Below are positions 1,023 to 58,679 of a DNA stretch of 58,765 nt, piece by piece. The stretch comes from Candidatus Eiseniibacteriota bacterium. GTDB taxonomy: Bacteria; Eisenbacteria; RBG-16-71-46; DASYSL01. The translations under genes and the position numbers were made by a program. The notes beneath the pieces are model-generated. The model was given only the letters and a program-made list of their open reading frames with translations, was not told where the DNA came from and did no database searches. Numbering within the stretch: position 1 is the first letter of the stretch; each line of letters starts with the position of its first letter. The DNA is taken from positions 1 to 58,765 of the forward strand of contig JANOEH010000089.1 in NCBI GenBank assembly GCA_031413115.1, read 5' to 3'.

Positions 1023-4000
1023 TCACCACCCCCCGAGCCGCACGAAGCGCGCAGTCTCTTGCTCACCCTCGGCGGCGAGGCGCACGAAGTAAATCCCTGC
1101 GGGCGCTGCGCGCCCGGAGCTATCGCGACCGTCCCAGGCGAGCGTGGTCTCTCCCCCCGCCGCTTCTCCATCGAAGAGCCGGCGTACCCGTGTGCCGCGC
1201 ACGTCGTGGATGTCGAGTCGCACGCGCGCCGCGTGTGGCAGCGAGAACGCGATGCGCGACGCGGTTGTTCCGCCGGCTGGGCTCGGCGCCACGGCACGCA
1301 GGCTCGGCCGATCCCTCCGTGCGGGCTCGAACGGTTCCACCGACACCGCGGTCCCGGCGAAGCGGAAGTCGTGCTCTCCCATGGAGCGTGCGTCGACGGC
1401 GACCCACGGTGAGCGCTGGAAGTAGGGCGAGCGCGTGTACTGCCGCGCACGCACGTGGAACGCGGTCTCCGGCTGCAGAATGTCGAGCTCCTCGACCAAG
1501 GCACCCTGGTCCACCGGATTGCCGGCCTCGAGCGTGTGCGGCCCGGTGATCGTCGGCACGCCGGTGAAGACCTCGTTCTGGGTGCGAACCTCGAACTGGA
1601 GGCCCATGCGCGTGCGACCCATCGGGGCGTGCGGGAAGAGGCCGGCCCGCACCGCGTGATCGCTCGTGTTCCGCGCCGGCGAGTGGAGCACGCGACCGTC
1701 CAGCGGATCGATCAACAGGAGCTGGTGCCGGCGACCGCGCCCTCCGCCGCCGAGCCCGACGAAGACGCGACCCGCGCCGGGCGCGCCGACGATCCAGTCG
1801 GCGAACCCGTCGGCGTTGACGTCGGCCAGCGGCGCGAGGCTCCCTCCCATCTCGGCGCCGAACAGGTTCGGCTCGAGCGTGACGGTCGGCTGCGTTTCGG
1901 GCAGGAGGAGCGCGCCGAAGTACAGGTAGGCGCGGCCCTCGTCGGTCTGCCCGCCGTCGAAGCCCGGCTGGCCGATCGCGAACTCGCCGAAACCGTCGCC
2001 GTCGATGTCGCCGCCGCCCGCCATCGTCTCGCCCATGCGCCCGCCGTCCTGCGTGCCGGCGTAGATCTTGAGCGGAGCGCGGGATTGCGAGCGTCCCAGG
2101 CTCCCGGCGTAGACGCGCGCGACGCCCTTGTTGTCCTCGAGCGGAGCGCCGACGCCGAGATCAGACACGCCGTCGCCGTTGACGTCGCCGAGCGCCGCCA
2201 CGGCCGCGCCGAACGTGACGGTCGTCGAGGTGAGGACGAATCCGGGAGCGTTTGCCGGACCACTCGGGCTGCCGTAGTGGACCTGCACCCTCCCATCGAG
2301 TTGCGGTCCGCCGAATGGCGAGGTCGAGCCGATCGCGACGTCGGTCCAGCCGTCGCCGTCGAAGTCGAGCAGCGCGACGCCGGCGCCCAGACCCTGGCCC
2401 GCCTCGCTGCCCTCGATCGTCCACGGGGCCGGCGGTGTGGGGCCGCCGAAGACGACCCATGCCTTGCCGGCGTTCGACAGCGTCGCCGTGTCCGCCTCGC
2501 GCGCGCCGATCTGCACGTCGTGGTAGCCGTCTCCGTTGACGTCGCCGCGGCCGGCCAGGGCGCTGCCCACACGGTCGAAGTCGCGTGTGCCCGCCAGCAG
2601 CGGGACCGGTGCTGCAGGCGTCGTCTCCGTGCCGCGCACCAGGTCGACGCGCCCGACCTGGGAGATCGGGTTCTGGAACGTTCCCCCATTGATCCCCGGC
2701 GACGACACGACGTAGTCGCCGAAGCCGTCGCCGTCGAAGTCGCCGGCGTCGGCCACGCGGGTTCCCAGGGCCTGCGCGTTCACGTTGCTCGTGACCGCGT
2801 GTCGGATCGTGGTCGAGAGTCCGGCCACGCCACCGCCCTCGTACTCGGTGACGCGTCCGAAGCCGTCGAACTGCGGGTCGCCGATCACGAGCCGCGGCAA
2901 CGCGAGAATGCTGCGGATCTGGACGATCGCCAGCGAGTTGCCGAAGCGCGTCCCGAGCTGCGGTCCGATCAGCGGCCAGCCCGTCGCGGTGCCGAGAACT
3001 CGCTGCAGCCGGCCGCGCAGGTCGATGCGGCCCGCGAAGTCTCCGCCGGCAGTGAAGTCGGAGACGAGGATCTCGCCGATGCCGTCCCCGTCGACGTCGC
3101 CGGATGGGCCGATCGACCCGGCGAATTGGCCCCCGCCCGGTGGCGAGATGAGCTCCCCCAGCTGGACGAACGCGGGGCCGCCGCCGAACACGATGGCGTG
3201 CCCGTTGTTCGTCGGGGGGTTCCGGCCGCTGACCGCGAACTCGGAGTAGCCGTCGCCGTCGGTGTCGCCGAGCGTGGCGACAACGAGCCCGTAGCGTTCC
3301 AGCGCCACGGGGTTCGGGTTGTTCAGTTGCGTGCGCGAGCCGGCTCCGTCCGGGCCCCCGAAGGCGATGTCGGCGCGACCGACCGCCACACCGTTGCCGG
3401 GCGAGCCGAACAGGACATCGGCGTAGCCGTCCCCGTTCACGTCGCCGGCCGTCGACACGGAAACGCCGCAGAACGCATCGATGCTCAGCCCCGGGAACTC
3501 CACGTTCTGGACCGCCTCGATCCCCGTCGCCGAGCCATGGAAGATTCGCACGATCCCGCCGCGGAGAAACGGTGAGTCCGCCTCGGGGGCGCTGATGATG
3601 ACGTCGTCGAAGCCATCGCCATTCACGTCGCCCGCCGTGGCAGCCTTCTCGCCGAACCGGGTCGAGGCCGCCGGGCCGATGAGCGTTCGCGCAGGAGCGG
3701 CCGCCAGGCCCGCCGGACCGCCGTGATAGATGTACGCCGCACCGCGCCGCTGAATGCCGCCCTCCACGTAGAGCGAGGTCGACACGACGACGTCGGCGAA
3801 GCCGTCGCCGTTGACGTCCCCGGCGAAGTCCGCACAGTTGCCGAACAATTGTGTGTCCGCCGGCGACGGCGGGAGGAGCTCGTAGTTCGGCGCCGCCGGG
3901 AGTCCCGCGGGTCCGCCGTGGAAGATCGCGACGCGGCCGGCGCTGGGATGATTGAGGAAGGTCGCGAAAGGGAGGGTCAACAGGATGTCGCCGTAGCCGT

Positions 4001-4367: not shown

Positions 4368-4559
4368 GGCGACCTCGGAGGGGTCGTGGGGCCGGCAGGG
4401 GGAGGTGGATGAAGTTACACGAGCGGGGCGCCAGGCGCGAGTCATTTCCGGACTTAGGTGGTATGCCGTGATCATCCGCACGCGACGCGCTGGGTCCCAC
4501 GAACACGACGACCACGCCCGCGAGTCGAGCGTGGTCGTCAATCGTTCATGGCCTGTCGA

Positions 4560-5055
4560 CTATCGGTACAGCGACTTGACCGAGCCCCACGTGGTGGTTG
4601 CCGCGGGCACCGGCCCGCAGGCGTCGTCATGGAAACCGACTCCCGCGAACGTGTCGACGGCGAATCCATCCCATTCGATGGTCGGATCGAACACGTTCGA
4701 ACCGTCGATGTCGCCGTCGCAGACCGCGGGCTTCCGGCGCAGCGTGTTGTCCATCGTGCTCTGCAGGCCGGCGCCCCCCTCGGTCCCGGGGTCGAAGCCG
4801 ATCTGGCCGAAGACATCGACGATCGTGTTCGAGACACCCTTCACCAGGACGACGGCGTCGTCGCCGTTGAAGTTGAGACTGGCGCTCGTCAGATCGCCGA
4901 GCCCGAGAAGTGCCGGGGTCGCCGACGAGTGGACGACGACGTACTGGTCGTTGTCGAGCAGGATCCCCGTGAGCAGAATCGTGTCGTGGCCAGGACCGCA
5001 CCGTTGAAGTAGTGCTGGAGCTTGTACCCGCCCGCGGTCAGGTCGGCCGGGCGCC
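4560..5055 (-). pseudogene. 5'-truncated, frameshifted lamin-tail-domain (ExeM N-terminus-like) protein with TWG tail
   Basis: [21 protein letters not shown] in one frame continues as TILLTG...[28 protein letters not shown]...TLRRK...[16 protein letters not shown] in another; 1-nt deletion near 4984; no start codon or signal peptide. Confidence 0.7.
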
Positions 5056-5508
5056 CTACTCGCCGGGCGGCATGATCCGCGTCGAGTGCAGCAACGCCAC
5101 CCTCCACGCCTTCCCCACGCGCCTCAGGATCATGCTCTCGAGCCAATCCTTCTGGCGCACCCCCGCTCGGTCCTTGATCTCGGACTTGAGGAAGTAGACG
5201 GCGTAGGCCACGTCGCCTTGCACCTTCACGGAGCGAAAGTCGCAGGCGTCGGTGCGTCGATAGCTCGAGTCGGGCGGGCCCAACAACGCGATGTCTCCCG
5301 CCGCATCGAGCATGGTGCCGTGCTCGAGGAGCGCGTAGTCCTCGGTGAGCACGGCGCGATACGCCAGCGTGTCGCGCTGGGCATAGCTGGAGTAGTAGGC
5401 CTTCACGGTGGCCTTCACGGCGGCGACCTCATCGCGCGCAAGCGCCGGCTGCGCCTGGACGGGGACCACGAGCACGGCGCCGAGCAGGATCCAGTTTCGC
5501 AGACTCAT
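5056..5508 (-). CDS. Secreted NTF2-like / DUF4440-type protein
   Basis: GGAGG SD; signal peptide; SnoaL/NTF2 pattern (YRAVLTEDY...VQGDVAY...WRVALLHST). Confidence 0.8.
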
Positions 5509-5521
5509 CGTTCCTCCCACC

Positions 5522-8218
5522 TCAGCGCCCACCCTTCGCCACACTCTCCCGCTCCCAGTTCTGGACCAGCACCAGGTGTTGCGTGGACGGATCCCCGCCG
5601 CCGACGGGGCGCGTGAACAGGAGTCGCAGGCCATCCGCGGTCACGTCGAAGTCGGTCAGGTCGCGGCCACGGGTGTCGAACAGCGGCGTGATCGCTCCGA
5701 GCGGCGGATTCTGCGAGGGATCCACCCTCGCAGTGGCAATGCCGCGGTTGGTGGGCCCGCTGCCGGCGAGGAAGAACAGCTCTCCGCTGTCGCGCGCCCA
5801 GCGGGGCCGAAACCCGCCTCCGGAGCCGACCTGCCACTGCCCCTTGCCGTCGGGGAAGCGGGCCAGGAAGACGTCGACCTGGCCCAGGTTGTCGGTCTGG
5901 TACGCGACCAGCCGACCGTCGGGCGAGATGCGCGCGTCGGCGACGTTCGGCGCGGGGACCTGGGGCAGGAGCGGCTCGAGCGATCCGAGGCTACCGTCGG
6001 GGAGCACCGGGCCCAGCTTCAAGCTCCCGTGACCGCGCTCATCGACGATGCGGATCGCCGATCTCCCATCCGGAGCCAGCATCACGTTGCAGTTGAGGGA
6101 TACGATGGAGGCCGGCGGCGCGAACGGTCGCTGGCCGCCGGAGCCGTCGGCGTGAATGGACAACACGCGGCCCTGCATGCCGCCCTGCTCCAGCTCGATG
6201 TAGGCGATCGCGGACGAGGACGCCATCCACTCCGGAGACACTTCGCGGAGTGGGCCGAAGGTGAGGCGCGTCTCGGTGTCACTCGCCACGTCGAGAACCC
6301 AGACGTCCTCGTTGTCGCCATCGCTGGCCGTGAACGCGATGCGCCGGCCGTCGGGCGAAAGCCGGGCGCGACCGAGTCCGCGGTGCGGCTTGCCCAGCGC
6401 CGCGATGTCCTTCCCCGCGCGATCCACCCAGACCAGTTCCCGCGTGACGCTGTTCCCGGACCCTTCGACGTAGAGCAGGGAACCATCGTCGGCGGCGCTG
6501 ATCGTGACGGCCCCCGCCGCTACGAGGATCGGCGGACCGGTGGCGCGATGGTGCGCCAGGTCGAACGGCGCCGACCAGGCCCCCGGCGTCGCCCCGACGC
6601 GAAGGAACAGCAGGCGCCCGCTGGAGGTGAGGGTCGGCATGTCGTCCGGCGAGTTTCCGAACTCCCCTGGAATTCCGATCTGCCGCTTGCCGTCGAAGAT
6701 CGTGAGCGCGCGCTTCACCGTCCCGGCGCTGTCGCGCTCGCTCTTCCAGTGCGTCACGTAGAGCAGGTCCCCGTTCGGGAGCCAGGTCGGACAGTGAAAG
6801 TCGATCTGCGTGTCGGGGTCGATCTCGATCAGCACGCTCGGATTGCCGCCCAGCGCCGGAACCTGGTACATGCGATCCCGCCAGACCGAGAACGCGATCA
6901 CTCCCCGGGCGCTCCACGTCACGCCGATCAGCTTCCCCGTGGCCGGCACTTCGCACACCGCGCTCGGCGCACCGCCGGCCAGGCCGACCCGCCACAGTTG
7001 CTTGCGGTCGCCATACACGAGCTCCTGCGAGTTGGGCGACCACGCGAACGCCATCGGCTCCTGGAGGTCGGCCACCGCACGCGGCGCGAGCTGGTCGAGG
7101 TCGCGCACCCAGAGCTGGTTCGCGGATGCGTAGGCAAAGCGCGAGCCGTCGGGCGACAGGCGCGGCGTCACCGGCCAGTCGAACACCAGGTCCTTCGCCA
7201 GCAGGTCGAGCTTGCGCACCAGGCCGGTCCGCGTGCCGGGGCCCAGGCGCATCGTAGCGAAGACCGCGAGCGCGGCCACGGCCAGGACGGCCGCCGCCGC
7301 AAACCACCACGGCACGCCGCCGCTGCGGGTGCGCGCCGGGGCCGCCGAGTCCTCGGGTTGCGACGGCGCGGCCAGCAGGATGCGCGCCTCGCCGATGTCG
7401 CGCAGGCGCTCGCGCGCGTCCTTGCGCAGGCAGCGCTCGAGCAGCGCGCACACGCGCGCGGGCGTCGCGGCCGGCAGGCGGCTCCAGTCGGGCTCGGTCT
7501 TGAGGATGTGCGCGACCAGGTCCGACGACGTCTCGCCCGCGAACACTCGGCGACCGGTCAGGCACTCGAAGAGCACGCAGCCGAACGACCAGATGTCCGT
7601 GCGCTTGTCGACCGGCCGACCGCGCGCCTGCTCCGGGCTCATGTAGGCCGCGGTGCCCAGGACGATGCCTGCCTGCGTCGGGTTGTAGGTCATCGTGGGC
7701 GAGGCCGATGCCCCCGGATCGACGGCCGTGGGCTCGCTGGCTCCGGACTTGGCGAGACCGAAGTCGAGCACCTTGACCGCGCCCACCGGCGTGAGCATTA
7801 CGTTCGCAGGCTTGAGGTCCCGGTGGACGACCCCGTTCTCGTGCGCCGCCTCGACGCCCGTCGCGATCTGCCGCGCGATGTCGATCGCCTCGTCGACGGG
7901 CAACGGCCCGCGGACGAGCCGATCGGCCAGCGTCTCGCCCTCGACGAGTTCGAGCACGAGGTAGCGCGCGCCGTCAACCTCCTCGAGTCCGTGAATGCCG
8001 GCGATGTTGGGATGCGACAGCGAGGCCAGCAACCGCGCCTCGCGCTCGAAGCGGGCAAGACGCTCGGGGTCGCGCGAGAACTCGGCGGGCAACGCCTTGA
8101 TCGCAACGTCGCGCCCCAGGCGCGGATCGCGGGCGCGATACACCTCGCCCATTCCGCCAGCGCCGAGCGGGGCGACGATCTCGTACGGGCCGACACGGGT
8201 TCCGGCGGAGAGCGGCAT
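5522..8218 (-). CDS. Hanks-type Ser/Thr protein kinase with TM helix and TolB/PD40-like beta-propellers
   Basis: LGAGGMGEVY, VAIK, HRDLKPAN, DFG, GTAAYMSPEQ, DIWSFG; TM VPWWFAAAAVLAVAALAVF; SPDG repeats. Confidence 0.95.
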   Translation of the reverse strand: MPLSAGTRVGPYEIVAPLGAGGMGEVYRARDPRLGRDVAIKALPAEFSRDPERLARFEREARLLASLSHPNIAGIHGLEEVDGARYLVLELVEGETLADRLVRGPLPVDEAIDIARQIATGVEAAHENGVVHRDLKPANVMLTPVGAVKVLDFGLAKSGASEPTAVDPGASASPTMTYNPTQAGIVLGTAAYMSPEQARGRPVDKRTDIWSFGCVLFECLTGRRVFAGETSSDLVAHILKTEPDWSRLPAATPARVCALLERCLRKDARERLRDIGEARILLAAPSQPEDSAAPARTRSGGVPWWFAAAAVLAVAALAVFATMRLGPGTRTGLVRKLDLLAKDLVFDWPVTPRLSPDGSRFAYASANQLWVRDLDQLAPRAVADLQEPMAFAWSPNSQELVYGDRKQLWRVGLAGGAPSAVCEVPATGKLIGVTWSARGVIAFSVWRDRMYQVPALGGNPSVLIEIDPDTQIDFHCPTWLPNGDLLYVTHWKSERDSAGTVKRALTIFDGKRQIGIPGEFGNSPDDMPTLTSSGRLLFLRVGATPGAWSAPFDLAHHRATGPPILVAAGAVTISAADDGSLLYVEGSGNSVTRELVWVDRAGKDIAALGKPHRGLGRARLSPDGRRIAFTASDGDNEDVWVLDVASDTETRLTFGPLREVSPEWMASSSAIAYIELEQGGMQGRVLSIHADGSGGQRPFAPPASIVSLNCNVMLAPDGRSAIRIVDERGHGSLKLGPVLPDGSLGSLEPLLPQVPAPNVADARISPDGRLVAYQTDNLGQVDVFLARFPDGKGQWQVGSGGGFRPRWARDSGELFFLAGSGPTNRGIATARVDPSQNPPLGAITPLFDTRGRDLTDFDVTADGLRLLFTRPVGGGDPSTQHLVLVQNWERESVAKGGR

Positions 8219-8288
8219 GCGGGGAATCTAGCCTATCCGGCGGATCACTGCATGGAGGCGTCGAGTCCTCCTGCGACTCCGACATCAA

Positions 8289-8316
8289 GGGCCGCCTCCC
8301 CGAGGGGAAGCGGCCC
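8289..8316 (-). terminator. Hairpin, putative intrinsic terminator of 8348..9145
   Basis: Minus strand GGGCCGCTTCCCC-TC-GGGGAGGCGGCCC followed by TTGAT. Confidence 0.6.
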
Positions 8317-8347
8317 GTTGTTGAGACGCCTGCGATAATGCGATCGA

Positions 8348-9145
8348 CTAGTTCTTGTACTGCGACTTCACGCGGCCCCAGCTCGTCTGATTGACCGGGA
8401 CCGGCGCATCGACGGTGAACTCCCAGCCGAAGCTGGCCGGCGGGGCGCCGCCCAGGTTGCCCAGGGAACCCGCCGGGTTGGCCAGGTTGAAGAGGCTGCC
8501 AGCGCCCGTCGAGACCCAGAACTGGTCGCCGCTGCTGCCGATATCCGCCGGGTCGAAGATGCCCTGGCCAATCAGGTCGAGCTGCGCCGCCGTGGCCCCG
8601 GTGGCCCCGTTGTTGTTGTCGAACGTGATGCCGGCCCAGAACGGCACACCAGGCATGAAGAACTGGCCGGGAGCGAGGGTGGCGGTGACGACCGTCACGC
8701 CGGGTCCAATGGCGATCGGGTTGAACGAGAAGCCGACTGCCGCGGGCAGGTTGTAGTAGGTGCCCGGCGCACCGCCGGCACCGTCGGCGAACCAGAAGCG
8801 GACGCGCGGACGAGTGCTCACGGTCGTCTGGTTGAAGTTGGCCATGCTGAACTTGAACTGCGTGATCGACAATCCAGCATGGACGCCGGTGGGCGTCACG
8901 TCATCGGCAACGAGGCGGGTGATGGTGTTCGCGCCCTGCAGCGCGGACCCGCCGTTGACGAAACCCTGGCCGAGGAAGCTGCTCACGTTCGAGTAGTCCG
9001 AGACCAACACCGCGGGCTCCATCGTCCCGGGCGTGCCGATCGCGAACTCTTCGACGATCTGAAGATTGCCGCCGAAGAACTCGTCGGCCCGAACCGGGGC
9101 GACGGCGACGGCGGTAAACACGATAGCGAGTAGAAGATTGCGCAC
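8348..9145 (-). CDS. Secreted hypothetical protein with TWG-tail motif
   Basis: GGAGGAGG SD, GTG start; signal peptide ending VRA; G/A/T/F-rich body; ends VPVNQTSWGRVKSQYKN. Confidence 0.85.
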   Translation of the reverse strand: MRNLLLAIVFTAVAVAPVRADEFFGGNLQIVEEFAIGTPGTMEPAVLVSDYSNVSSFLGQGFVNGGSALQGANTITRLVADDVTPTGVHAGLSITQFKFSMANFNQTTVSTRPRVRFWFADGAGGAPGTYYNLPAAVGFSFNPIAIGPGVTVVTATLAPGQFFMPGVPFWAGITFDNNNGATGATAAQLDLIGQGIFDPADIGSSGDQFWVSTGAGSLFNLANPAGSLGNLGGAPPASFGWEFTVDAPVPVNQTSWGRVKSQYKN

Positions 9146-9304
9146 TTGGATGCCTCCTCCATGACGATGGAATGCTTCGGATCAGCGGCTGGTGCGGATC
9201 GGCGTGGACAATCGGGGGCGTGGTGCCTGCCCCTCCGGGAGACGGCCAGTCGCACAGCAGCAGCGATTTTGCGCGCGAATACCCACTCTGGCAAGGGCTT
9301 TCTG

Positions 9305-11565: not shown

Positions 11566-11585
11566 CCCCGGCGAACGCCGACCGC

Positions 11586-20186: not shown

Positions 20187-23171
20187 TCACGGCAGGATCA
20201 CGACCCGCGTCGAGGTGCGTACGCCATCCAGCGTCACTCGCAGGTAGTACACACCCGCCGCGATCGGCCGGCCGGCCTCGCCACGTGCCGCCCACGTGGC
20301 CGCGTGCACACCGGCGTCGGCGAAGCCGTGCGCCAGCGTCGCCATCCGCCGCCCCACGACCGAGTACAGCGCGGCCTCGAACGCAGCGCCACCCGCGGGG
20401 ATCTCGTAGGCGTACTCCATCGTGCCGCCGCGCGGCAGCGGGTTCGGCGTGATCGCCGCGGCCACTGCGAGAACCACGGCTCCCGGAACGCGCGCGCCAC
20501 CGTCCGCGAGGACGACGCAATCGCTCACCTCGATCATGCGACCGCCACGCAGTCGCGCCTCGAAGGTGACGACGCGTGTCGCGCCACCGGGGGCAGACGC
20601 CAGGCTCGCCGCGATCGCCTGCGCGTCGAACTCGAACACCGCATCGGCGACGCCGTCCGGAGTGCGGCCGTCACACGGACAGCCGGTGCCGCAGGCGTCG
20701 ACCGGCCCGCTCTCGTCGGCCAGCGTGAGCGCGGCGTGCACCGCGCGCACGCCCGCGAGTCGCACCGAGGAGAGGATCAGGTCGGCGAAGTCGAACGCGC
20801 CCGCGCTCACCAGCGCCACGCGCACCGTTCCCTTCGCCGCGGCAGCGAGGACGTTCGGACAGGCGCCGGGCATCACGTCCAGCGTCACGCCGGGTGCGGC
20901 CGGCGTCGAATCCCCCGTGCGGTTGCGCAGCACGCCGATGCGATCGGCGGCGAGACCCGCGCTCAGGAGATCGATGCGACCGTCGCCGTCGAAATCCCCG
21001 GCGACGACCACGTCGGCGGCGGCCGTCGTGCCGAAGGTCAGCGGTGCGCCGAACGACAGCGTCCCCGCGGCACCGCCCGGCAGGATTGTGAGCGTGGACG
21101 CACCCGCGTTCGCCACCGCGAGATCGAGCCCGCCGACGCCATCGAGGTTCGCGACGGCGAGGCCACGCGGGTCGGCCCCCACGCGCGCAGTCGCTGCCGC
21201 GTCGAAGCCGCCGAAGCCGCCGTTGCCATCACCCGGGTAGACGACGACGAGACCGCCGGCCGGATACGCCGCGCCCTGCCCCGACACGACATCGAGATCA
21301 CCGTCCCCGTCGAGGTCGGCGAGCGCGAGCGCGAGCGGGCGCAAACCGGTGCGCCACTCCTGCCCGCGCGTGAAATCCCCACCGCCCGATCCCTTCCACA
21401 CGCTGATCGAATGTGCGCCCTCGGCGGCGACCACGAGATCGGTGCGGGTATCGCCGTCGACGTCGCCCAGCGCGAGCGCGGCGAGTCCGCCCGCAGCGGT
21501 CTCAAGCGTGGCGTGCAGGTGCAGCTTCCCGGTGCCGTCGGCGAGGAACACCGCGACGGTGTTCGTGCCCGCGATCGCCACGATCACGTCCTCGCCGCCC
21601 CCCGCGTCGACCTGCCCGACCACGAGCGCAACCGGGCGACCGCCGACCTCGACCGTGTCGTCGGGCGCGAACGTAAACGCGCCTTCGCCCCCGGGATTGC
21701 GGGCGACCGAGAGGAATCCTCTGGAGGTCGCGTGCGCCACGACGAGGTCGAACGCGCCCCCTGCCAGGAGCCGAGCGCCGCGCACGCGCGTCGGCGCGAA
21801 GCCCACGGGATACGTCACGCGGCCCGACTCGGCAAACCCACCGGCGCCGTCGCCGCGCAGGACGGTGAGCCCATCGGCGAAGAGGTCCGGCGCCGCGAGA
21901 TCGAGCGTGCCGTCGCCGTCGAGGTCGCCGAGCCACAGGTCGGCCGGCCCGAAGTCGAGCCTGAGCGCGGTCGCATCGCCGAAGCTGCCGTCACCGCGAC
22001 CCGCGAGCAACACCGCGCCGCGCCCGCCGGGTTCGAGTCCGACGAGATCGGGGCGCCCGTCGCAGTTCCAGTCGTCGACGGCGAACCGACCCGCGCCCAG
22101 ACGCGCCGCGTGGTGCGGTGCACCGACCAGTCGCCCCGAGCGATCGTTGCGGAACACGCCGATCCCACCGCCGCGACGATCGACGGACAAGAGGTCTGGC
22201 CAGCCGTCGAGGTCGACGTCCCCCACCGCGAGCGCGGCGGGCACGAAGTCGGCGTCGAACGCGAGCGCGGGCTCGAACTTTCCGCTCGCCGTGCCGCGCA
22301 GGATGCGCACGCCGCCGTGCTCCTCCGCCTCGACCACGCTGCCTGCGCCGACCGAGACCACGAGGTCGACGTGGCCGTCGCGATCGACGTCGGCCGCGGC
22401 CAGCCCGGCCGGAACCGCCCCGATCGAGACTTCGTCGACCCGGTGGAAGTGTCCGCTCTGCGTCACCGCGAGGACTTCGATCCTGCCGTCGGCGTCGGCC
22501 ACCGCCAGCCCTTCGTGACGCACCCCGGGCAGGCGCACGACGACCAGTTGCAATGGGCCCGCGCCCGCGCGGATCGTCGTCGGCGCGTCGTACGCGAAGT
22601 CGCCGCGCCCGCGCAGGAACAGCGCCGTGTTGCGCCCGGCGCCGACGATCAACACCAGGTCGAGGATGCCGTCGCCGTCGAGGTCGCCCGCGAGCGCGCC
22701 CGCCGGATCCTCGCCGACACCGAACGCGCGCGGCGAAGCGAACGTCCCGTCGCCCGCGCCACGCAGGATCGAGACGGTTCCCGCCCTGCGATTGACGACC
22801 ACGAGGTCGCTGCGTCCGTCGCCGTCGGCGTCGAGTGCGACGAGGTCGCGCGGGTCCGGCCCCGCCGCGAATCCGATGCGCGAGCGGAATCCACCGCCCG
22901 GTGCGCCGAGCAGGATCGAGATGCCGTCGTCGTCGGGATGCGAGAGCGCGAGATCGCCGAGTCCGTCGCCGTTGAAGTCCGCGTTGACGAGATCATAAGC
23001 AAGACGTCCGCTGTCGAACCAGCGGTAGCCGCCGGTGAAGCGCAGCGCCGATGCCGGCTGCGCGGCCGCAGAGCGCGCTCCGATCGCGAGCAGGAGGCCT
23101 GCAAGCGCGAAAATGAACACGAGTCGGCCGGGGGCCGGGCGATGGAGTTGGATCGAGGGCTCGAAGTGCAT
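20187..23171 (-). CDS. Secreted VCBS/FG-GAP repeat protein with C-terminal FlgD-Ig/T9SS-like domain
   Basis: About 14 DxDGDGxxDL repeats; LDVMPGACPN domain; C-terminus ITPNP...LYSVVGRRMATL...AAGVYYLRV; start uncertain. Confidence 0.85.
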   Translation of the reverse strand: MHFEPSIQLHRPAPGRLVFIFALAGLLLAIGARSAAAQPASALRFTGGYRWFDSGRLAYDLVNADFNGDGLGDLALSHPDDDGISILLGAPGGGFRSRIGFAAGPDPRDLVALDADGDGRSDLVVVNRRAGTVSILRGAGDGTFASPRAFGVGEDPAGALAGDLDGDGILDLVLIVGAGRNTALFLRGRGDFAYDAPTTIRAGAGPLQLVVVRLPGVRHEGLAVADADGRIEVLAVTQSGHFHRVDEVSIGAVPAGLAAADVDRDGHVDLVVSVGAGSVVEAEEHGGVRILRGTASGKFEPALAFDADFVPAALAVGDVDLDGWPDLLSVDRRGGGIGVFRNDRSGRLVGAPHHAARLGAGRFAVDDWNCDGRPDLVGLEPGGRGAVLLAGRGDGSFGDATALRLDFGPADLWLGDLDGDGTLDLAAPDLFADGLTVLRGDGAGGFAESGRVTYPVGFAPTRVRGARLLAGGAFDLVVAHATSRGFLSVARNPGGEGAFTFAPDDTVEVGGRPVALVVGQVDAGGGEDVIVAIAGTNTVAVFLADGTGKLHLHATLETAAGGLAALALGDVDGDTRTDLVVAAEGAHSISVWKGSGGGDFTRGQEWRTGLRPLALALADLDGDGDLDVVSGQGAAYPAGGLVVVYPGDGNGGFGGFDAAATARVGADPRGLAVANLDGVGGLDLAVANAGASTLTILPGGAAGTLSFGAPLTFGTTAAADVVVAGDFDGDGRIDLLSAGLAADRIGVLRNRTGDSTPAAPGVTLDVMPGACPNVLAAAAKGTVRVALVSAGAFDFADLILSSVRLAGVRAVHAALTLADESGPVDACGTGCPCDGRTPDGVADAVFEFDAQAIAASLASAPGGATRVVTFEARLRGGRMIEVSDCVVLADGGARVPGAVVLAVAAAITPNPLPRGGTMEYAYEIPAGGAAFEAALYSVVGRRMATLAHGFADAGVHAATWAARGEAGRPIAAGVYYLRVTLDGVRTSTRVVILP

Positions 23172-26349: not shown

Positions 26350-27252
26350 TCACCTCAGCATCTCGCGCAGGAACGCGCCGATCAGCGCGCCTGCCCCCCT
26401 CGTTCCCGTGTCGCGCTGCGCTCGCGTCGACGAGCCGCCGACCAGCGCCGTCTGCGCCAGGATCCACGCTTGGCGTTCATCCGGCTGTGTCGCGCGCGTC
26501 GCCAGCGCAGCGGCCTCGGCGGCCGCCGTCTCGGCATGCGTCCGCTCCGCCTGCTCGAGCGCACCGGACATCACGAACCCGGCCACTCGCTCCAGCTCCT
26601 GGGCGTCGAGCCACGTGCCGTGCTCGCGACACCAGTCGACAATGATTCGTGAGCGGCGGCCGAAGTTCTTGCGATGCATCGGCTGCGCGCACACGGGGCA
26701 GTCGCGGTAGTGCACCGCCCCGTCGGTCGCGGCCTCGCTGGAACGGGCGACGGCGGTGATGCCGCGGGTCGGAGTCGCGCGCGCCGCCTCCATCGCCTTC
26801 TTCACCAGCGCGTCGAAATGCTCACCCGGCACCCACAGCCCGGCGCAGCGCGCACACTCGCGCACCGGCACGCCACCGATCCCCTGCAGCGCCAGCGGCT
26901 CGGCACACACGGGACAGGCCAGCGCGGCCGCGTCGGTCGGCACCGGCTGCGGGCGGAACTCGACGCCGCAGGTCCTGCAGTAGCGGTTGGCCTCGTCGTT
27001 GCGGGTGAAACACTCGGGACAGATGAGCCGCAGGCGCGTCGCGTCGGCGACCAGTCCCGCGCGACAGTATGGACACGTCCGGGCCGCGCCCTCGACCGAC
27101 GCGCCGCACGCGCCGCAGCGACGCGCCTCGACGTCCCGCCCGGCGGCGACCGCGTTGTCGACGGTCGTCCCGCACGAGCACGCGAAGCGCGCGCCCTCGT
27201 GGGCCGTGACGTCGTACTGGATGTGGCAGCGTGGACAGGCGACGAGCCGCAG
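26350..27252 (-). CDS. Multi-zinc-ribbon protein (double zinc ribbon + zf-TFIIB-like), probable CTG start
   Basis: The frame of ORF 26350..26943 stays open upstream: (CTG)RLVACPRCH...CSCG...CGAC...CPYC...CPEC...CRTC then CPVC/CARC and CPVC/CREH. Confidence 0.8.
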   Translation of the reverse strand: MRLVACPRCHIQYDVTAHEGARFACSCGTTVDNAVAAGRDVEARRCGACGASVEGAARTCPYCRAGLVADATRLRLICPECFTRNDEANRYCRTCGVEFRPQPVPTDAAALACPVCAEPLALQGIGGVPVRECARCAGLWVPGEHFDALVKKAMEAARATPTRGITAVARSSEAATDGAVHYRDCPVCAQPMHRKNFGRRSRIIVDWCREHGTWLDAQELERVAGFVMSGALEQAERTHAETAAAEAAALATRATQPDERQAWILAQTALVGGSSTRAQRDTGTRGAGALIGAFLREMLR

Positions 27253-27421
27253 AGTGCACCCCCCGGGCCCGTGGCCGTGCGCGGGACCCCCCGGGAGTGA
27301 TCGGCGGGTTGGGGGATCGGCTGAAGCACGCCGAACGGCGTCGCAAGCCCTTGGGGTTAAATCAGTTGGGACAACGCTTCCGGGCGTCGCGGGGGCAACC
27401 GCGTCCGCTCTTCAGCCGAGG

Positions 27422-28915
27422 CTAGCAACTGTAGTACACGTGCTCGCGATTTCCCGTGTCGATGCCGAGCTCGAGTCGACGGATCCGCCGCCTGAGATCT
27501 CGCGTGCGGGACGCCGCGTCCAGCGTGAATCCGAAGCTCGAGCGCGCGGACTCCGTTCCGACTTCCGGCAGGGGCTCCAACACGAGCAACCGGTAAAGCG
27601 CGAGGGCTCGCTGCCGGTGCTGGTCCGCAGCGACACTACGGCGTGCGGCAGCGGACTCCGCCGCACCAAGACCTGCGCAGTCGAGCGACCAGGCGGTTTC
27701 GTGCGATTGGGCGACGAGCAGCGCGACCTCGCGCCACGCCGCTGATTTGGGGAAGCGGCGCAGGAAGGTCTCCCCGCGCGCAATGATAGAGCGGTAGGCA
27801 TCCCACTCGAACTCACCCGTCCCGCTCGAATCCCAGCCCGACTCCAGGCGATCCGCGAAGGCATGATCCGCTAAGGGGCTCCGGCCTGTGCGCTCCAGCA
27901 ACGGAACGAGCAATGAGCCCTCGTAGGTTCGGTACTCGCCATCCATCCCCTCGTGCAGCGACACGCCGAGCGGCGACAGCGCAGGCTCGATCATCTCCAC
28001 GGCCACCGTGTCAGGCAGCGCTCCGAGGGACACGATCCACAGGTGAGCGGACCAGAGGAGAAGATCGCGGCGCGTCCCGGCGCGCAGCGTGTCCGCTTCG
28101 GCGAGGGCACCGCGCACGACGCTGAGTCCGGCGATCCCGGGCGGATTCGCGGTCAGTGCCGCGTGCAGCCGGGCGTCACGCGGACCGAGCGCCGCGGCGG
28201 CTTCCGCCCTTCGCTCCCGGGTTCGCAGCGCATCGGGATCCTGGTCGCCGTCGGGACCCGCATCCCCGGACCAATCCCTGCGCTCCTCGATGAGCAGCTG
28301 CGGGGACCAGCGGGCGACAAGCAAAGAATCGCCAAACCGTCCGTCCTCGGCGTGGTAGACGCGCACCACTCCCGTCGGGGTGACGAACTCCCGCACGACG
28401 CCCTCCCACGCCAGGTGGAGCCCGTCGAGGCCGGCGCGCGGTTCGAGTGCGCGACCGTCACCGAGGCGTCTGGTGAGTTGGTGGACGAGCGCAGACTCGA
28501 CTTCAGCGAGGCTTGCCGCGTGTGGGGGCAGGAACGACAAGGCGCCGATCGCCCAGAAGGCCAGTCCCCATCGCGGCTCCGGATCATCACCGAGGGGGTA
28601 GACCCTCCGCTCGAACGTCCCGCCCGCGAGCGAGGTCGAGCATCGGTGAACCCAGTTCTCGACCGGCCGGGTGAGATACGGGAGGTCGGCAACGGAACGG
28701 AAGTCCCGACACTCACCTGCCGTTGAGGACGCGACTGTACCTTGCGGTCGCGCCTCCCCAGGCTCGGGCCAGATTCGGCCGAGCGGCGTCGCGAGGATCG
28801 AGTCGCAGACGGTGGTGATGAGAGTGGTCGAGGAATCGGTCGACGCGGTGGATGCATCGGCTGCGAGGAGGAGCGCCGGCGCAAGCGCCGTTGCGATCAG
28901 CAGGGCACGAAACAT
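27422..28915 (-). CDS. Secreted hypothetical protein (helical/TPR-like C-terminus)
   Basis: GGAGG upstream; signal peptide MFRALLIATALAPALLLAADA; FLRRFPKSAAW resembles a TPR/BamD-like helix. Confidence 0.65.
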   Translation of the reverse strand: MFRALLIATALAPALLLAADASTASTDSSTTLITTVCDSILATPLGRIWPEPGEARPQGTVASSTAGECRDFRSVADLPYLTRPVENWVHRCSTSLAGGTFERRVYPLGDDPEPRWGLAFWAIGALSFLPPHAASLAEVESALVHQLTRRLGDGRALEPRAGLDGLHLAWEGVVREFVTPTGVVRVYHAEDGRFGDSLLVARWSPQLLIEERRDWSGDAGPDGDQDPDALRTRERRAEAAAALGPRDARLHAALTANPPGIAGLSVVRGALAEADTLRAGTRRDLLLWSAHLWIVSLGALPDTVAVEMIEPALSPLGVSLHEGMDGEYRTYEGSLLVPLLERTGRSPLADHAFADRLESGWDSSGTGEFEWDAYRSIIARGETFLRRFPKSAAWREVALLVAQSHETAWSLDCAGLGAAESAAARRSVAADQHRQRALALYRLLVLEPLPEVGTESARSSFGFTLDAASRTRDLRRRIRRLELGIDTGNREHVYYSC

Positions 28916-29002
28916 GATCGATGAACCTCCCGCACCGGGCGCCCGGCCGGGCTCCCTGACGTGCGACCCGCGGACACGCCACGGGAGTATCGCAGATCCC
29001 AG

Positions 29003-44735: not shown

Positions 44736-46685
44736 TCAGTCGATCACGACCACCGTCTTCGACACGGACGCCCCGCCCTGCGACAGGCGCAGGAAGTAGG
44801 TGCCGGCCGGGAGCGAGCGATCGCCGTCGAGACTCACGACGTGCCGGCCCGGGGCGAAGCCGGACAGGTCGGCCGAGCGCACAATGCGACCGGCGACGCT
44901 CACCAGGTCGAGGCGCGCACGCGACACGCCCGGCAGGGTGAACGCGACGCTCATGTTGCGACCGACGGCCGGGTTCGGCTGCGCGCCTTCCAGCGCGAGC
45001 GCGACTTCGGCGCCCGGCGTGGTGACCCACACGATGTCCGACGTCGTCGTCTCGCCGTTGCCGCGGCCGACCAGTCGATAGCCGTAATCAACGCCCGGCT
45101 CGACCGTGTCGTCCTCGAGGATGAGCACGCTCTCGCCCAGCAGCACGGGATCCGCGATCGTCGTCCACTGGTCGTCCCGCTCGGTGCGCTCGGCCGTCCA
45201 GGCGAGTTCCGAGGCTCCGGCGGCGAACCACTCGATCCGCACGCCCTCGCTGCCGGCATTGATGTAGCCCGGCGCGATGTCGATCGACGTCGCGGCATCG
45301 AGCCAACCGATGTCCGCGAAGTGGTTGATCGTCAGGTCGACGGTCGACGACAGGTTGCCGTTGATCGCCGGCTCCATCAGGAGGTTGGGCTCGGCGGACG
45401 TGTCCCAGTGCGACACCGACGAGCCACCGACCAGCGTCGTCGGAGCGTACATGAGCACGCGGTTGCCGAATGTGCCGCCGGCGAGTCGCGTCGGGTCGAC
45501 GAGCAGCGTCGCCGTCTGGCCGACCAGGTTCGCCTTGAGCAGGTTGCCGTCCGCCTGGGTGACGCGCACCGCCGGAATGGTGATCGTCGCATCGGCGCCG
45601 CCGAGACCGGCCGGTGGGCAGCCCGCCGCGTTGTCGGCGATGATGACGCCGATCGCGCCGGCATCCTGCGCGTTCTTCACCTTGACGGTGAAGCCGCAGA
45701 GACCGCGGTTGATCAGGGCGATGTTGCCGGCGAGGGCCGCGGCGTTCACCGGGGGAGCCTCGCAGCCGTCGTTGATCGGCACCACGGCGTCCTCGTAGAG
45801 GACGACGTTGCCGGTCACCGATCCGGCGCTGAGCGGCGGGCCGAAGCTCGCCGTGCCGACTTCGTAGTAGCCCGCGACGGCCGGGGGCGACGCCACCAGC
45901 AGCTGTGGCTTCGCGCCAAGCACGAGTCCGGACGACGAGCGCACGCTCGGTCCGTCCCACGACAGCTTCTGGCAGTTGATCGCCGAGGCGACACGCTGCG
46001 GATCCGTCATCTCGTTCCAGTGCAGGCCATTCGAAATGTCGAACAGGAACCGGTCGTAGATGGACGGGAATCCAGCCAGGTAGACGCCCGTCGAGCGGTT
46101 CGTCACGGTGCTGAATCCGAGCCCGTGTCCGAGTTCATGGAGCACGACCGGAAGCAGTTCGATCGCCGCGCCCTCGTTGCCGTCGAGCCCGTAGTACCAG
46201 GTGAACGGGCAGCCGGCGAGCGTTCCCAGGTTCGAGTTGAACTGGGCGTTGATGTCGTTGGTCGTCACGTCCAGATCTGCACCCGCGAGGCGATTGGCGA
46301 GCGCGGTGTGATACCACGTGCCCGCGAACGGCGCGTTGGGGAAATCACGGAAGACCTGGATGGGTCCCGCGCTGCCGAGGACCGCCCCCGACGCCGTGCA
46401 GGTCTGGGGATTGAACGCGGCCTGCACCTGGATGGTGACGGCGCTCGGGACGAGCGAGCCCCAGATGTTCGCCGCGTGCTGGAAGACGATCAGGCGCTGC
46501 TGGCCGAGCGTCACGCCGGCGTTGCCGCCGACCGGGGCGACCACGGTGGGATCGTTGAATCCCTCGCCGGCGCCGTCGGAATTGACGATGACGATCGTCG
46601 CAGCCTGCGCGGGCGCGGCCGCCAGGGCGCCGACCACGGCGACCGCGGCCAGGAGACGGAGGAATCGATCGTTCACGAGGTGCAT
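44736..46685 (-). CDS. Secreted zinc metallopeptidase with inserted PA domain and C-terminal T9SS/FlgD-like domain
   Basis: Signal peptide ending AQA; HELGHGLGF zincin motif; PA domain (IALINRGLCGFTVKVKNAQDAGA); SHWD...LMEP; PNP...GTYFLRL tail. Confidence 0.9.
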   Translation of the reverse strand: MHLVNDRFLRLLAAVAVVGALAAAPAQAATIVIVNSDGAGEGFNDPTVVAPVGGNAGVTLGQQRLIVFQHAANIWGSLVPSAVTIQVQAAFNPQTCTASGAVLGSAGPIQVFRDFPNAPFAGTWYHTALANRLAGADLDVTTNDINAQFNSNLGTLAGCPFTWYYGLDGNEGAAIELLPVVLHELGHGLGFSTVTNRSTGVYLAGFPSIYDRFLFDISNGLHWNEMTDPQRVASAINCQKLSWDGPSVRSSSGLVLGAKPQLLVASPPAVAGYYEVGTASFGPPLSAGSVTGNVVLYEDAVVPINDGCEAPPVNAAALAGNIALINRGLCGFTVKVKNAQDAGAIGVIIADNAAGCPPAGLGGADATITIPAVRVTQADGNLLKANLVGQTATLLVDPTRLAGGTFGNRVLMYAPTTLVGGSSVSHWDTSAEPNLLMEPAINGNLSSTVDLTINHFADIGWLDAATSIDIAPGYINAGSEGVRIEWFAAGASELAWTAERTERDDQWTTIADPVLLGESVLILEDDTVEPGVDYGYRLVGRGNGETTTSDIVWVTTPGAEVALALEGAQPNPAVGRNMSVAFTLPGVSRARLDLVSVAGRIVRSADLSGFAPGRHVVSLDGDRSLPAGTYFLRLSQGGASVSKTVVVID

Positions 46686-56189: not shown

Positions 56190-58679
56190 ATGTTCCCATT
56201 CCACCCCGCCCGCATGCTTGGTGCGCTCGTGCCCGCATGCGCGTTGGTTGCCGGGCTCGCATGCGGAGCCCAGCCCGCAGCCGCCCAGCCCGCCCGCCAC
56301 GTCACCGCCGAGCAGGGCGGCCCGGGCGGGCGCTCCCTGCTCATCGAGTCTCGCCTCACCGGCCTCCACCTCGATGCGTTCGTCGACGGGTTTCGCCAGC
56401 CGGGCATGATTGCACCCCAGGGCGCCGTGGCCCCGGCCTTCGACTTCGCCGCCGCCCCTTTCGCGGGGCTTACCGCGGAAGGGCCGTGGAGCCCGTTGCC
56501 GCCGCCGGCACGCTGGGTGCATTCCACGATTTACGACCCCGTGCGCGATCGCCTGATCGTGTTCGGCGGCCAGGGCTACTCCGGCTCGACCAACGAGGTG
56601 TGGGCGCTCAGCCTCTCGGGAATCCCCCGCTGGTCGATGCTCCTCACCTCGGGTACGACGCCGTCGGCACGGGCGTTCCACAGCGCGGCGTATGACTCGC
56701 TGCTCGATCGGATGATCGTCTTCGGCGGCAACGACGGCTCGCCGCGCAACGACGTCTGGGCGCTCTCGTTCGCCGGCAGCCCGACCTGGTCGCAGCTCGA
56801 CCCCACGGGCACGCCGCCGTCCCCGCGCGCGTGGCACGCCGCGGTCGTCGATCGCGCGCGCAATCGCATGATCGTACACGGCGGGCAGGTGAACGGGACC
56901 GGGCTCGCCGACACCTGGGCGCTGTCGCTCGGCGCGACGCCGGCGTGGACGCCGCTCGCGGCCGCCGGCGCCGGCCCGGGCGTGCGCTCGGCGCACGCCG
57001 TGGCGCTCGATGCGCCGGGCGATCGCCTGATCGTGTTCGCCGGTATCGACGCGGCCGGCCAGGCCACGGCGACCGCGTGGACGCTGTCACTCGGGGGGAC
57101 ACCCACCTGGGCCGCACTCACGCCGACCGGGACGCCCCCGGGTGCGCGCTACGGCGCGAGCGGGACGTACGACCGACTGCGACGACGCGCGATCTTCTTC
57201 GGTGGCGGCGTCGGCGCCCCGAACACGAACGAGACGTGGGCGCTCACGCTCGAGGGCACGCCCGCGTGGACGCTGCTCCCCTCGTCGAACGCACCGCAGG
57301 GTCGCCAGTTCCACACCGCCGCCTACGATCCGTTCGGGGATCGACTGCTGGTCTACGGCGGATCGTCCGGTCCCGTGCTCTCGGATACCTGGGCGCTGCC
57401 GCTCTCGTCGCCCGGCTCGGCGTGGATTCCGCTGTCGGGGACGCGGCGCAAGGGCCATACGGCCGTGCTCGACACCGCCCGCCGGCGCATGGTGATCTTC
57501 GGCGGGGAGAACTCGTCGCAGCTCAACGACCTCTGGGAGCTGGGGCTCGGCGCGGGCTCGACGTGGGCGCGACTCAATCCGGCCGGGACGCCGCCGTCGG
57601 CGCGCGCGCTGCACACGGCGATCTACGACGACCGACGGGATCGCATGATGGTTTTCGGCGGACGCGGCGGACCGCCGACCAATGACCTCTGGGAGCTGAC
57701 GCTGTCGGGCTCGCTCGAGTGGCGCCTGGTCGAGGCGGCGGGAACGCCGCCGCCACCGCGCTTCGACCATGTCGCGGTCCTCGATGCGTCGCGCTATCGC
57801 ATTCTGGTTTTCGGCGGGATGGACGCCGGCGGCTCGTTCAACGACGCCTGGGCGCTCTCGCTCGCCGGCACGCCGACGTGGAGCCTGCTCGCGACCACCG
57901 GAAACCGGCCGTCGGCCCGCGGCGGGGCGCAGGCGATCTTCGACACGGTGCGCGACCGGATCGTCGTCTTCGGCGGCTACACGCAGAACTTCACGCCCCT
58001 CGGCGACGTCTGGCAGCTCTCGTTCACCAACGGCTCCGTGTGGTCCGCGCTCACGCCGAGTGGAACGGCCCCGGTCCCCCGCTTCGCGGGCGCGACGTCG
58101 TACGACACCACGCGCGATCGCATGCTGGTCGCCAGCGGAACCGACTTCGTCAACTTCCACGACGAGACGTGGGCGCTGCAGTTCGCGGGTTTCGGCACGT
58201 CGGCGAGCTGGAGCCGCCTGTCGGGGCCCGGCCAGAGACCGACCTCGCGCTCCGACCACAAGTCGGTCTACGACGTGGACTCCGATCGGCTCGTCTCGTT
58301 CGGTGGCTTCAATCTGAACGGCGTGCTGCACGACACGTGGGAGATGGACTTCACGGCGGTGGTCGGCGTGCCGGACGGGGATATGCCGACGGCCGGTGCG
58401 GGCCCGCTGACGCTGGCGCTGACCGGCGCCAACCCGGCGCGCGACGCGGCGCGCTTCCAATGCTCGCTGCCGACGTCGGGACCGATCGCGCTCGAGCTGG
58501 TCGACGCGCGGGGGCGTGCCGTGCGAACCGTGGCCGCGGGGTCGTTCGCGGCCGGGCGGCATGCGTTCGCGTGGGATGGGCGCGACATGGCCGGACGCCG
58601 GGCGGCGGCCGGGATCTACTTCGCGCGCGTGCGGCAGGGCGACGCCGAGGCGCGGACAAGGGTGGTCTGGTTGCCCTAG
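56190..58679 (+). CDS. Secreted kelch-repeat protein with C-terminal FlgD-Ig/T9SS-like domain
   Basis: About 12 repeats of P..R..H...YD..RDR.IVFGG.....ND.W.L.L; C-terminus GANP...DARGRAVRT...AWDGRD.AG...GIYFARV. Confidence 0.9.
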   Translation: MFPFHPARMLGALVPACALVAGLACGAQPAAAQPARHVTAEQGGPGGRSLLIESRLTGLHLDAFVDGFRQPGMIAPQGAVAPAFDFAAAPFAGLTAEGPWSPLPPPARWVHSTIYDPVRDRLIVFGGQGYSGSTNEVWALSLSGIPRWSMLLTSGTTPSARAFHSAAYDSLLDRMIVFGGNDGSPRNDVWALSFAGSPTWSQLDPTGTPPSPRAWHAAVVDRARNRMIVHGGQVNGTGLADTWALSLGATPAWTPLAAAGAGPGVRSAHAVALDAPGDRLIVFAGIDAAGQATATAWTLSLGGTPTWAALTPTGTPPGARYGASGTYDRLRRRAIFFGGGVGAPNTNETWALTLEGTPAWTLLPSSNAPQGRQFHTAAYDPFGDRLLVYGGSSGPVLSDTWALPLSSPGSAWIPLSGTRRKGHTAVLDTARRRMVIFGGENSSQLNDLWELGLGAGSTWARLNPAGTPPSARALHTAIYDDRRDRMMVFGGRGGPPTNDLWELTLSGSLEWRLVEAAGTPPPPRFDHVAVLDASRYRILVFGGMDAGGSFNDAWALSLAGTPTWSLLATTGNRPSARGGAQAIFDTVRDRIVVFGGYTQNFTPLGDVWQLSFTNGSVWSALTPSGTAPVPRFAGATSYDTTRDRMLVASGTDFVNFHDETWALQFAGFGTSASWSRLSGPGQRPTSRSDHKSVYDVDSDRLVSFGGFNLNGVLHDTWEMDFTAVVGVPDGDMPTAGAGPLTLALTGANPARDAARFQCSLPTSGPIALELVDARGRAVRTVAAGSFAAGRHAFAWDGRDMAGRRAAAGIYFARVRQGDAEARTRVVWLP

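Follow-up and report, generated by a model that had tools for sequence, protein, structure and literature searches.

Exported proteins encoded on a 58,765-nucleotide stretch of DNA from a Candidatus Eiseniibacteriota bacterium, an uncultured soil organism (GCA_031413115.1, contig JANOEH010000089.1; hereafter the window, which is contig C89 of the source genome G000) carry one of two C-terminal tags, either a domain of about 90 residues or a tail of about 17 residues built around a [ST]WG motif, here called the TWG tail. The domain is a divergent type A-like C-terminal domain (CTD) of the type IX secretion system (T9SS) and forms the ordinary half of the finding, and the TWG tail, though uncatalogued, is a genuine tag at the C-terminus. 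We lean towards reading them as two unrelated tags, the T9SS CTD and a separate sorting or anchoring tag whose reader would be independent of T9SS. New here are the phylum-wide exclusivity of the two tags, the decoupling of the tail from PorU, PorV and CTD load, the exclusion of exosortases as its reader, and its alignment with IPTL-type signals.

The G000 assembly comprises 3.4 Mb in 271 contigs, is 90% complete and has a G+C content of about 70%. Because raw lists of open reading frames (ORFs) are useless at such a G+C content (the raw window list holds 146 ORFs of at least 150 aa), genes were predicted with a codon-usage gene caller trained on the genome, giving 2925 genes (89% coding). TWG proteins were collected from this proteome with the pattern W[GS]x[VILM][KR]xx[YFW], required to lie in the final 20 residues, and CTD proteins with a hidden Markov model (HMM) that was seeded with the four CTDs of the window and iterated on the proteome, the domain lying at most 30 aa from the stop codon. 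These searches returned 50 TWG proteins (about 1.7% of the 2925 predicted proteins) and 115 CTD proteins. The phylum sample consisted of 121 Eisenbacteria genomes, including the TWG-rich family f1 (5 genomes, G000 among them), family f2 and the TWG-poor family f7 (26 genomes).

An uncatalogued tail on unrelated exported proteins

The logo derived from the 50 G000 tails reads [PS][TV]PAxPx[ST]WGx[VIL]K[AS]xYR, with Pro at position -6 in 38 tails and Ala at position -5 in 39. Between 7 and 11 residues follow WG (xVKxxYR plus up to four more); 33 tails end at the residue directly after Tyr, which is Arg in 43 of the 50, while the other 17 carry one to four extra residues. The basic residues of the tail are thus one invariant Lys and this one Arg, and an Arg cluster is not present. 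The tail is matched by no Pfam or NCBIfam model, at E ≤ 1 in the window proteins and at E ≤ 0.001 in 40 others; literature searches on such a tail found no paper describing it, and the passages available from the Haft preprint on related signals (bioRxiv 10.1101/2023.06.07.544157) do not mention it.

Six ORFs of the window end in the tail, in the form [PS][TV]PAxPx[ST]WGx[VIL]KxxYR, and the five intact ones encode small proteins of 211–308 aa, as the sequence-only reading had stated. These are a 211-aa protein of no known family (379-1014, plus strand; ending in ...TPAVPSTWGGVKALYR), a protein of about 257 aa with an uncertain start (8348-9121, minus strand; ending in ...PVNQTSWGRVKSQYKN), a 249-aa DUF7450 protein (29937-30686, minus strand; PF24247, 112 bits) listed at 263 aa in the public protein collection, and two paralogues of 302 and 308 aa that share 63% identity (50380-51288 and 51592-52518, both on the plus strand). 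The sixth, apparently broken, is probably a single TWG gene at 4560-5532 on the minus strand that has been disrupted by a frameshift or an assembly error. Its ORF 4560-5123 combines a lamin-tail/ExeM-like domain (partial match to NF033680) with the TWG tail and has no in-frame signal peptide, and it looks frameshifted because the overlapping upstream ORF 5056-5532 carries one.

Across G000, the bodies that bear the tail match choice-of-anchor V, L and E, DNRLRE, DUF4394, CHRD, GEVED, DUF7450, PD40 and NHL families. A shared tail could also arise by common descent of a single paralogous family, or as an artefact of gene calling or assembly, and 24 of the 50 bodies do have some BLAST match within G000. 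We regard this explanation as highly improbable, given that the other 26 bodies have no BLAST relative in the genome, that the rest fall into many unrelated Pfam and NCBIfam families, and that among the 120 listed homologues of the window gene 50380-51288, 117 retain the tail, at identities down to 48%. The explanation is further countered by a strict back-translated TWG pattern, which matched 1883 times in the 121 genomes against a single match for the reversed control pattern. A scan of GTDB for the tail yielded at least 117 stretches, 80 of them listed, and 67 of 79 distinct listed tail-bearing ORFs have a signal-peptide-like Met start (median length 238 aa, range 134–402, none above 450), so that TWG proteins are small in other genomes as well. 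Lipoprotein anchoring was rejected as an alternative, lipobox-like starts being rare among both TWG proteins (3 of 50, all doubtful) and CTD proteins (1 of 115).

The AlphaFold model of the window DUF7450 protein has an overall pLDDT of 90, with values above 90 for the body and of 45–51 for the last 14 residues, which form the tail. The tail would be a flexible appendix that follows the last folded element, on exported proteins that are mostly single-domain. One possibility is that such a peptide acts by itself or in regulation, as an amphipathic binder of membranes or lipopolysaccharide, as a docking strand, or as a C-terminal tag for a periplasmic protease. The tail combines Trp and Tyr with Lys and Arg and lacks a membrane helix. 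Its hydrophobic moment is 0.58 when computed for a strand, near the 95th percentile of random 10-mers, and 0.38 for a helix, compared with a random mean of 0.25, and residues 255–262 of the DUF7450 model are drawn as a low-confidence helix. The 17 tails with residues past YR also indicate that a free carboxylate in a fixed place is not needed, and no reader was found among the candidates tested. However, the strict conservation of Pro-Ala...[ST]WG suggests a recognition motif more than a lipid-binding surface, several families show the tail at the very junction where homologues have enzyme-processed signals, and its number varies by lineage in the manner of sorting systems, so that we consider a self-acting peptide quite unlikely.

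A divergent T9SS domain on large exported proteins

All four large proteins that the sequence-only reading had singled out do end in a domain of about 90 aa, PNP...GR.V...G.YF.R, and all have a start that by eye resembles a signal peptide. They are a 1114-aa FG-GAP repeat protein (1023-4367, minus strand; FG-GAP 196 bits), a 994-aa FG-GAP/VCBS-like repeat protein (20187-23171, minus strand), a 649-aa PA-domain, metalloprotease-like protein (44736-46685, minus strand; PA 67 bits) and an 839-aa Kelch β-propeller (56160-58679, plus strand; Kelch families), the last counted from a TTG at 56160, with the Met start at 56190. The genome CTD HMM matches them at E = 1.8e-30 (the last ~90 aa of the FG-GAP protein, about 1026-1295), 3.0e-21, 7.3e-21 and 7.2e-29, respectively. 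Public models capture the domain unevenly: Pfam FlgD_ig (PF13860, cut-off 27) scores above cut-off in the FG-GAP and Kelch proteins (45.5 and 40.0 bits), reaches 17.6 bits in the 994-aa protein and gives no match in the 649-aa protein, whereas the Bacteroidota model TIGR04183 (cut-off 23) reaches 26.0 bits in the 649-aa protein and 15.9–17.3 bits in the other three (17.3 in the FG-GAP protein).

All 115 CTD matches in the genome end within 30 aa of the stop codon, and an independent six-frame search of G000 returned 123. A structure model built from 24 CTDs has seven strands (pLDDT 92.6), and Foldseek places it near FlgD (3osv and 3c12, TMq 0.57–0.59), and, at similar scores, the CTD-bearing P. 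gingivalis structures of PorU (6za2, 0.61), PorZ (5m11, 0.52) and the RgpB CTD (7pq4, 0.42). In PMC11285876, the CTD is defined as a seven-strand sandwich of 67–108 residues, and T9SS is said to be possible in further FCB phyla. The domain therefore shares with T9SS type A CTDs (TIGR04183/PF18962) its position at the extreme C-terminus, a seven-strand Ig-like sandwich in the model, and its presence on about 115–123 exported proteins that include PorU. It differs in lying closer to PF13860 and diverging in sequence from TIGR04183, and in being preceded, about 13 aa upstream, by a lineage-specific V-x-V-[PGD]-[DE] motif.

G000 encodes PorU (565.8 bits, cut-off 420), SprA, split across two contigs, and five full PorV-family genes. 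PorU (G000:C92:12743-17104, 1453 aa) itself ends in the same type of CTD according to the genome HMM and is directly followed by PorV (332 aa) in an operon (G000:C92:12743-23577) that continues with a 1127-aa M6-like protein and with proteins of 294 and 253 aa. The 1127-aa protein carries a TIGR04183 CTD (28.3 bits, cut-off 23) and resembles the family 'T9SS-dependent M6-like inactivated metalloprotease' (136 bits, below cut-off); the two small proteins that close the operon end in ...F, like outer-membrane barrels, and match no family. This arrangement recalls the Bacteroidota T9SS in having SprA and neighbouring PorU and PorV, and differs from it in the motor part, as GldM/PorM gave no match with TIGR03517 or PF12081 in the 90%-complete genome, GldK, GldL and GldN were not searched, and the TIGR03517 result is a weak negative because its control gave no match anywhere. 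By analogy with Bacteroidota, CTD cargo would be exported by Sec, would cross the outer membrane through the SprA translocon with PorV, and would lose its CTD to the PorU sortase. We found no paper that joins Eisenbacteria with type IX secretion.

Further PorV-family barrel genes adjoin genes for large proteins with variant CTDs at G000:C14:3191-7420, C255:7178-11469, C207:18335-21742 and C150:15086-16356. The variant CTDs have ends such as ...GKFAVIK and ...FLVLKSDREGFK, and the pairs recall PorU-PorV and PorZ-PorQ.

The two tags exclude each other and differ at their junctions

None of the 165 tagged G000 proteins carries both tags, and internal TWG motifs number zero. When the 121 genomes were searched for a TWG motif followed after 4–24 codons by PNP, 25 pattern matches were returned, and since all 25 have a stop codon 0–5 codons after YR, the phylum has no TWG-CTD fusions. 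A TWG motif directly ahead of a CTD was accordingly rejected for Eisenbacteria, and the mutual exclusivity first noticed in the window extends to the phylum.

Exclusivity is also what two alternatives within one system would display. The sequence-only reading had proposed that the tail is a miniature alternative CTD using the same or a parallel pathway and the same cleavage-site logic; in its strict form the tail would be a miniature T9SS signal, recognised by the same SprA and PorV and perhaps cut by PorU just before [ST]WG. The comparison of the two tags speaks against this. The tail has 17 residues and lacks the β-sandwich of 67–108 aa that CTD models match, and no likeness was seen between it and the last strand or strands of the CTD. 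The junctions differ as well, although both tags had been thought to follow a similar short linker: the motif [VIT]xV[PGDEA][DEGPAS] lies about 13 aa before the CTD in 54 of 114 CTD proteins and occurs in 4% of background windows and in only 1 of 50 TWG proteins. The motif takes forms such as VGVPD and VSVEP and has window examples at about 1310-1340 (minus strand) and 58380-58400 (plus strand); written as V-x-V-[PGD]-[DE], it is a candidate lineage-specific motif of the PorU cleavage region or of a hinge. The [TV]PA that had been taken for the corresponding linker is part of the TWG tail itself and stands at 14 of 114 CTD junctions. Of the earlier proposal, the wording of a parallel pathway is thus favoured, while a shared pathway and shared cleavage logic find no support, as junction motifs, sequence, length and fold all differ.

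The proposed split by cargo size survives as a genome-wide trend and fails as a partition. TWG proteins of G000 have a median length of 240.5 aa (range 92–445) and CTD proteins, taken over complete genes, one of 656 aa (range 124–1895), and the difference is pronounced between the subsets with signal-peptide-like starts (n = 34 and n = 74; Mann-Whitney p = 5e-15). Nonetheless, 17 of these 74 CTD proteins are no longer than 445 aa, NHL bodies of about 317–331 aa occur with CTDs at the same size as their TWG forms, and TWG proteins of 429 and 512 aa exist among the choice-of-anchor L proteins. The split is a strong, one-sided trend with overlap: other G000 proteins with signal-peptide-like starts have a median of 303 aa, so that CTD proteins are the unusually large class and TWG proteins are ordinary-sized among exported proteins. 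It follows from architecture, T9SS cargo consisting of large multi-domain surface proteins.

The tail occupies the slot of known C-terminal signals

The exchange of tags among homologues for which the sequence-only reading had suggested looking is found in DUF7450, NHL and choice-of-anchor L proteins and among paralogues within the genome. The 87 DUF7450 homologues comprise about 40 with the TWG tail, six with PEP-CTERM-like tails (13.7–15.7 bits, just below the cut-off of 16) and one with an IPTL-like tail (also just below cut-off), all at the same junction, and about 35 with neither an export signal nor a tail. NHL-propeller homologues end in the TWG tail in 7 cases and in a G000-type CTD in 16 among 120 listed, and choice-of-anchor L representatives (n = 150) do so in 7 and 9 cases; that the same bodies take either tag would suit a miniature T9SS signal. 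Single choice-of-anchor L members that were checked also end in IPTL-CTERM (26.6 and 20.5 bits, cut-off 20.5), PEP-CTERM (25.6 bits, cut-off 16), LPXTG, Bacteroidota-type TIGR04183 (38 bits) or VPLPA-CTERM-like (23.1 bits, just below cut-off) signals. The TWG tail thus sits in the choice-of-anchor slot, where homologues have PEP-CTERM, IPTL-CTERM, VPLPA-CTERM-like, LPXTG or T9SS domains, and its exchange with tripartite signals of the exosortase or sortase type is no rarer than that with CTDs. Within G000, 5 of the 50 TWG bodies are paralogous to domains of larger CTD proteins, one example being a DNRLRE body that shares 46–51% identity with the N-terminus of the adjacent 1104-aa CTD protein.

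When aligned with MAFFT, the TWG tail falls on IPTL and PEP signals with their hydrophobic core as a gap (VPAAPSTWG------RVKAGYR compared with VPS-TSEWG[helix]...K/R). The tail thus aligns as an IPTLxxWG-type signature motif and a basic end from which the membrane helix would be missing, a resemblance to a tripartite signal that, the alignment being short, is suggestive and no proof. Like IPTL-CTERM (IPTLxxWG, TIGR04174), it has a Pro-containing motif that ends in [ST/E]-W-G directly after the last folded domain, together with a basic end, and both occur on choice-of-anchor L and DUF7450 bodies. Unlike IPTL-CTERM, it has no hydrophobic helix, no Arg cluster and no HMM match at E ≤ 1, its Pro stands one residue further from the Trp, and an exosortase-family gene is missing from G000 and from three of the other four f1 genomes. 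IPTL-CTERM is tied to exosortase H.

The broader class of PEP-CTERM and other tripartite signals, the subject of the Haft preprint (bioRxiv 10.1101/2023.06.07.544157), shares with the tail that it is short, C-terminal, found on many unrelated exported proteins, restricted to lineages and interchangeable among homologues. Of what defines such signals, the TWG tail has the signature motif on the C-termini of many unrelated exported proteins, whereas the other two defining parts, the membrane-spanning segment and the Arg-rich cluster, are missing, and no cognate sorting enzyme was found among the exosortase and archaeosortase families searched.

Without a helix, the tail cannot hold a protein in the inner membrane as tripartite signals do. 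Its reading would instead take place in the periplasm or at the outer membrane, and the factor involved would be neither an exosortase nor a PorP/SprF barrel. A more specific version, which we think quite improbable, is that the tail is a helix-less descendant of IPTLxxWG/PEP-CTERM signals that no longer depends on the exosortases of the inner membrane; in T9SS-bearing lineages of FCB type, a periplasmic or outer-membrane transpeptidase, or PorU itself, would then read it beyond that membrane. If true, small single-domain proteins could become covalently attached to the surface without a CTD, which would constitute a new class of bacterial protein sorting.

Tail number varies across a phylum in which T9SS is near-universal

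Tails occur in 114 of the 121 genomes, at 0–49 per genome, with a median of 27.5 in f1 and f2 together and of 1 in f7 (maximum 5 in 26 genomes). PorU is found in 119 of the 121 genomes and in all 26 of f7, the two misses (G069 and G104) resting on five scored candidates only. PorV is present in every genome at 3–9 copies (4–8 in f7) and shows no link to tail count, and CTD matches number 53 and 73 in two f7 genomes that lack tails altogether. T9SS and abundant CTD cargo where tails are absent, and a PorV copy number that does not track the tail, both speak against a miniature T9SS signal. Re-tagged DUF7450 orthologues in TWG-poor genomes were looked for and rejected: none of 31 f7 genomes yielded the DUF7450-TWG family, which means that the cargo family is absent there and has not been re-tagged.

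The sequence-only reading had also pointed to T9SS genes in TWG-bearing genomes as a test, and they are present in nearly every TWG-rich genome examined, the exceptions being G126, G069 and G104, in which some of the candidates were scored. All three checks proposed in that reading (exchange of tags, a size trend and T9SS genes) thus turned out in its favour. Outside the phylum sample, two mislabelled metagenome-assembled genomes with 27 and 31 tails have PorU, as do four of five further genomes with 9–61 tails (G126–G130; candidates in G126, the miss, were scored in part), whereas PorU was not found in three genomes with 1–3 tails on contigs of 2.2–3.6 kb, which are probably mis-binned. None of the genomes examined is a clear instance of tails in the absence of T9SS. 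This co-occurrence says little, because T9SS is near-universal in the phylum and the association is confounded by phylogeny, and we doubt that the TWG tail depends on T9SS.

Several points nonetheless weigh against a reader independent of T9SS, and some of them would fit a miniature T9SS signal. Nearly every TWG-rich genome examined has PorU (G000, G001, G003 and four of G126–G130). TWG genes adjoin CTD genes in G000 more often than in shuffled gene orders (10 of 50, with about 4 expected from the shuffles; p about 0.009), and 5 of the 50 TWG bodies are paralogous to domains within CTD proteins of the same genome. PMC11285876 maps the T9SS signal of HBP35 to the final 22 residues of the CTD, where the last strand has a conserved Lys, so that a very short T9SS signal is not absurd. 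The case for an independent pathway is built on negative results, gene starts were taken from the codon-usage caller trained here, and the calls of signal peptides come from a crude rule and visual inspection, without a predictor. Weighing these points against the differences in length, sequence, fold and junction, and against the phylum counts, we consider a miniature T9SS signal unlikely and continue to lean towards two unrelated tags.

Candidate readers of the tail

G000 gave no match with the exosortase-family models PF09721 or TIGR04178 (sortase, rhombosortase and CPBP families were not searched). TIGR04178-family genes occur in 97 of the 121 genomes, yet in only one of the five TWG-rich f1 genomes as against 17 of the 26 TWG-poor f7 genomes. 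An exosortase or archaeosortase was therefore rejected as the reader, being absent from G000 and most of f1 and present in f7. The TIGR04178 genes look like two kinds, one of about 280–950 aa scoring 60–78 bits and one of about 170–270 aa scoring 40–65 bits, and the f7 matches looked at among those listed are all of the larger kind.

In a relative of the same genus (G122:C209:13308-16385), an exosortase-like gene of about 194 aa overlaps the end of a gene with an IPTL-CTERM-like tail (...TVSEWG, a helix and RRVRR), and a gene with a TWG-like tail (...VPWGRVKASYR) lies about 600 bases away. G000 has no homologue of this small exosortase-like protein (tblastn E > 1) and no IPTL-like tails.

The outer-membrane candidates fared no better. 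A PorP/SprF barrel was rejected, as PorP/SprF occurs in 7 of the 121 genomes and in none of f1, f2 or f7. The number of PorV paralogues was likewise rejected as a correlate, with 3–9 copies in all 121 genomes, and its failure to track tail counts argues against an extra PorV paralogue as the reader. A predicted complex of the canonical PorV (residues 23–332) with the mature DUF7450-TWG protein (residues 31–263) obtained a score of 0.01 (mark 0.32) and counts neither way.

C-terminal sorting signals decide what bacteria display at their surface. To our knowledge, every catalogued short signal of this kind joins a motif to a membrane helix and a basic cluster, and is served by a membrane protease of its own. 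A tail that keeps the motif and the basic end and occurs without an exosortase implies a mode of reading that has yet to be described. In annotation, the presence of the tail marks dozens of 'hypothetical' proteins per genome as proteins of the envelope or surface, and the clean natural contrast between f7 and f1 plus f2 turns the search for its reader into a tractable problem of comparative genomics.

Neighbouring genes in the window

An 898-aa Ser/Thr protein kinase (5522-8218, minus strand) lies between two of the TWG genes of the window. G000 encodes 41 such kinase homologues, and 9 of them have a TWG gene no more than three genes away, compared with 2.9 expected at random (p about 0.008). 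These kinases are the sole recurrent neighbours of TWG genes and are not enriched near CTD genes; a mechanistic link was not seen. Elsewhere in the window, a 2-kb stretch at 26943-29003 has no called gene, and the raw list places a 497-aa ORF inside it (27422-28915, minus strand).

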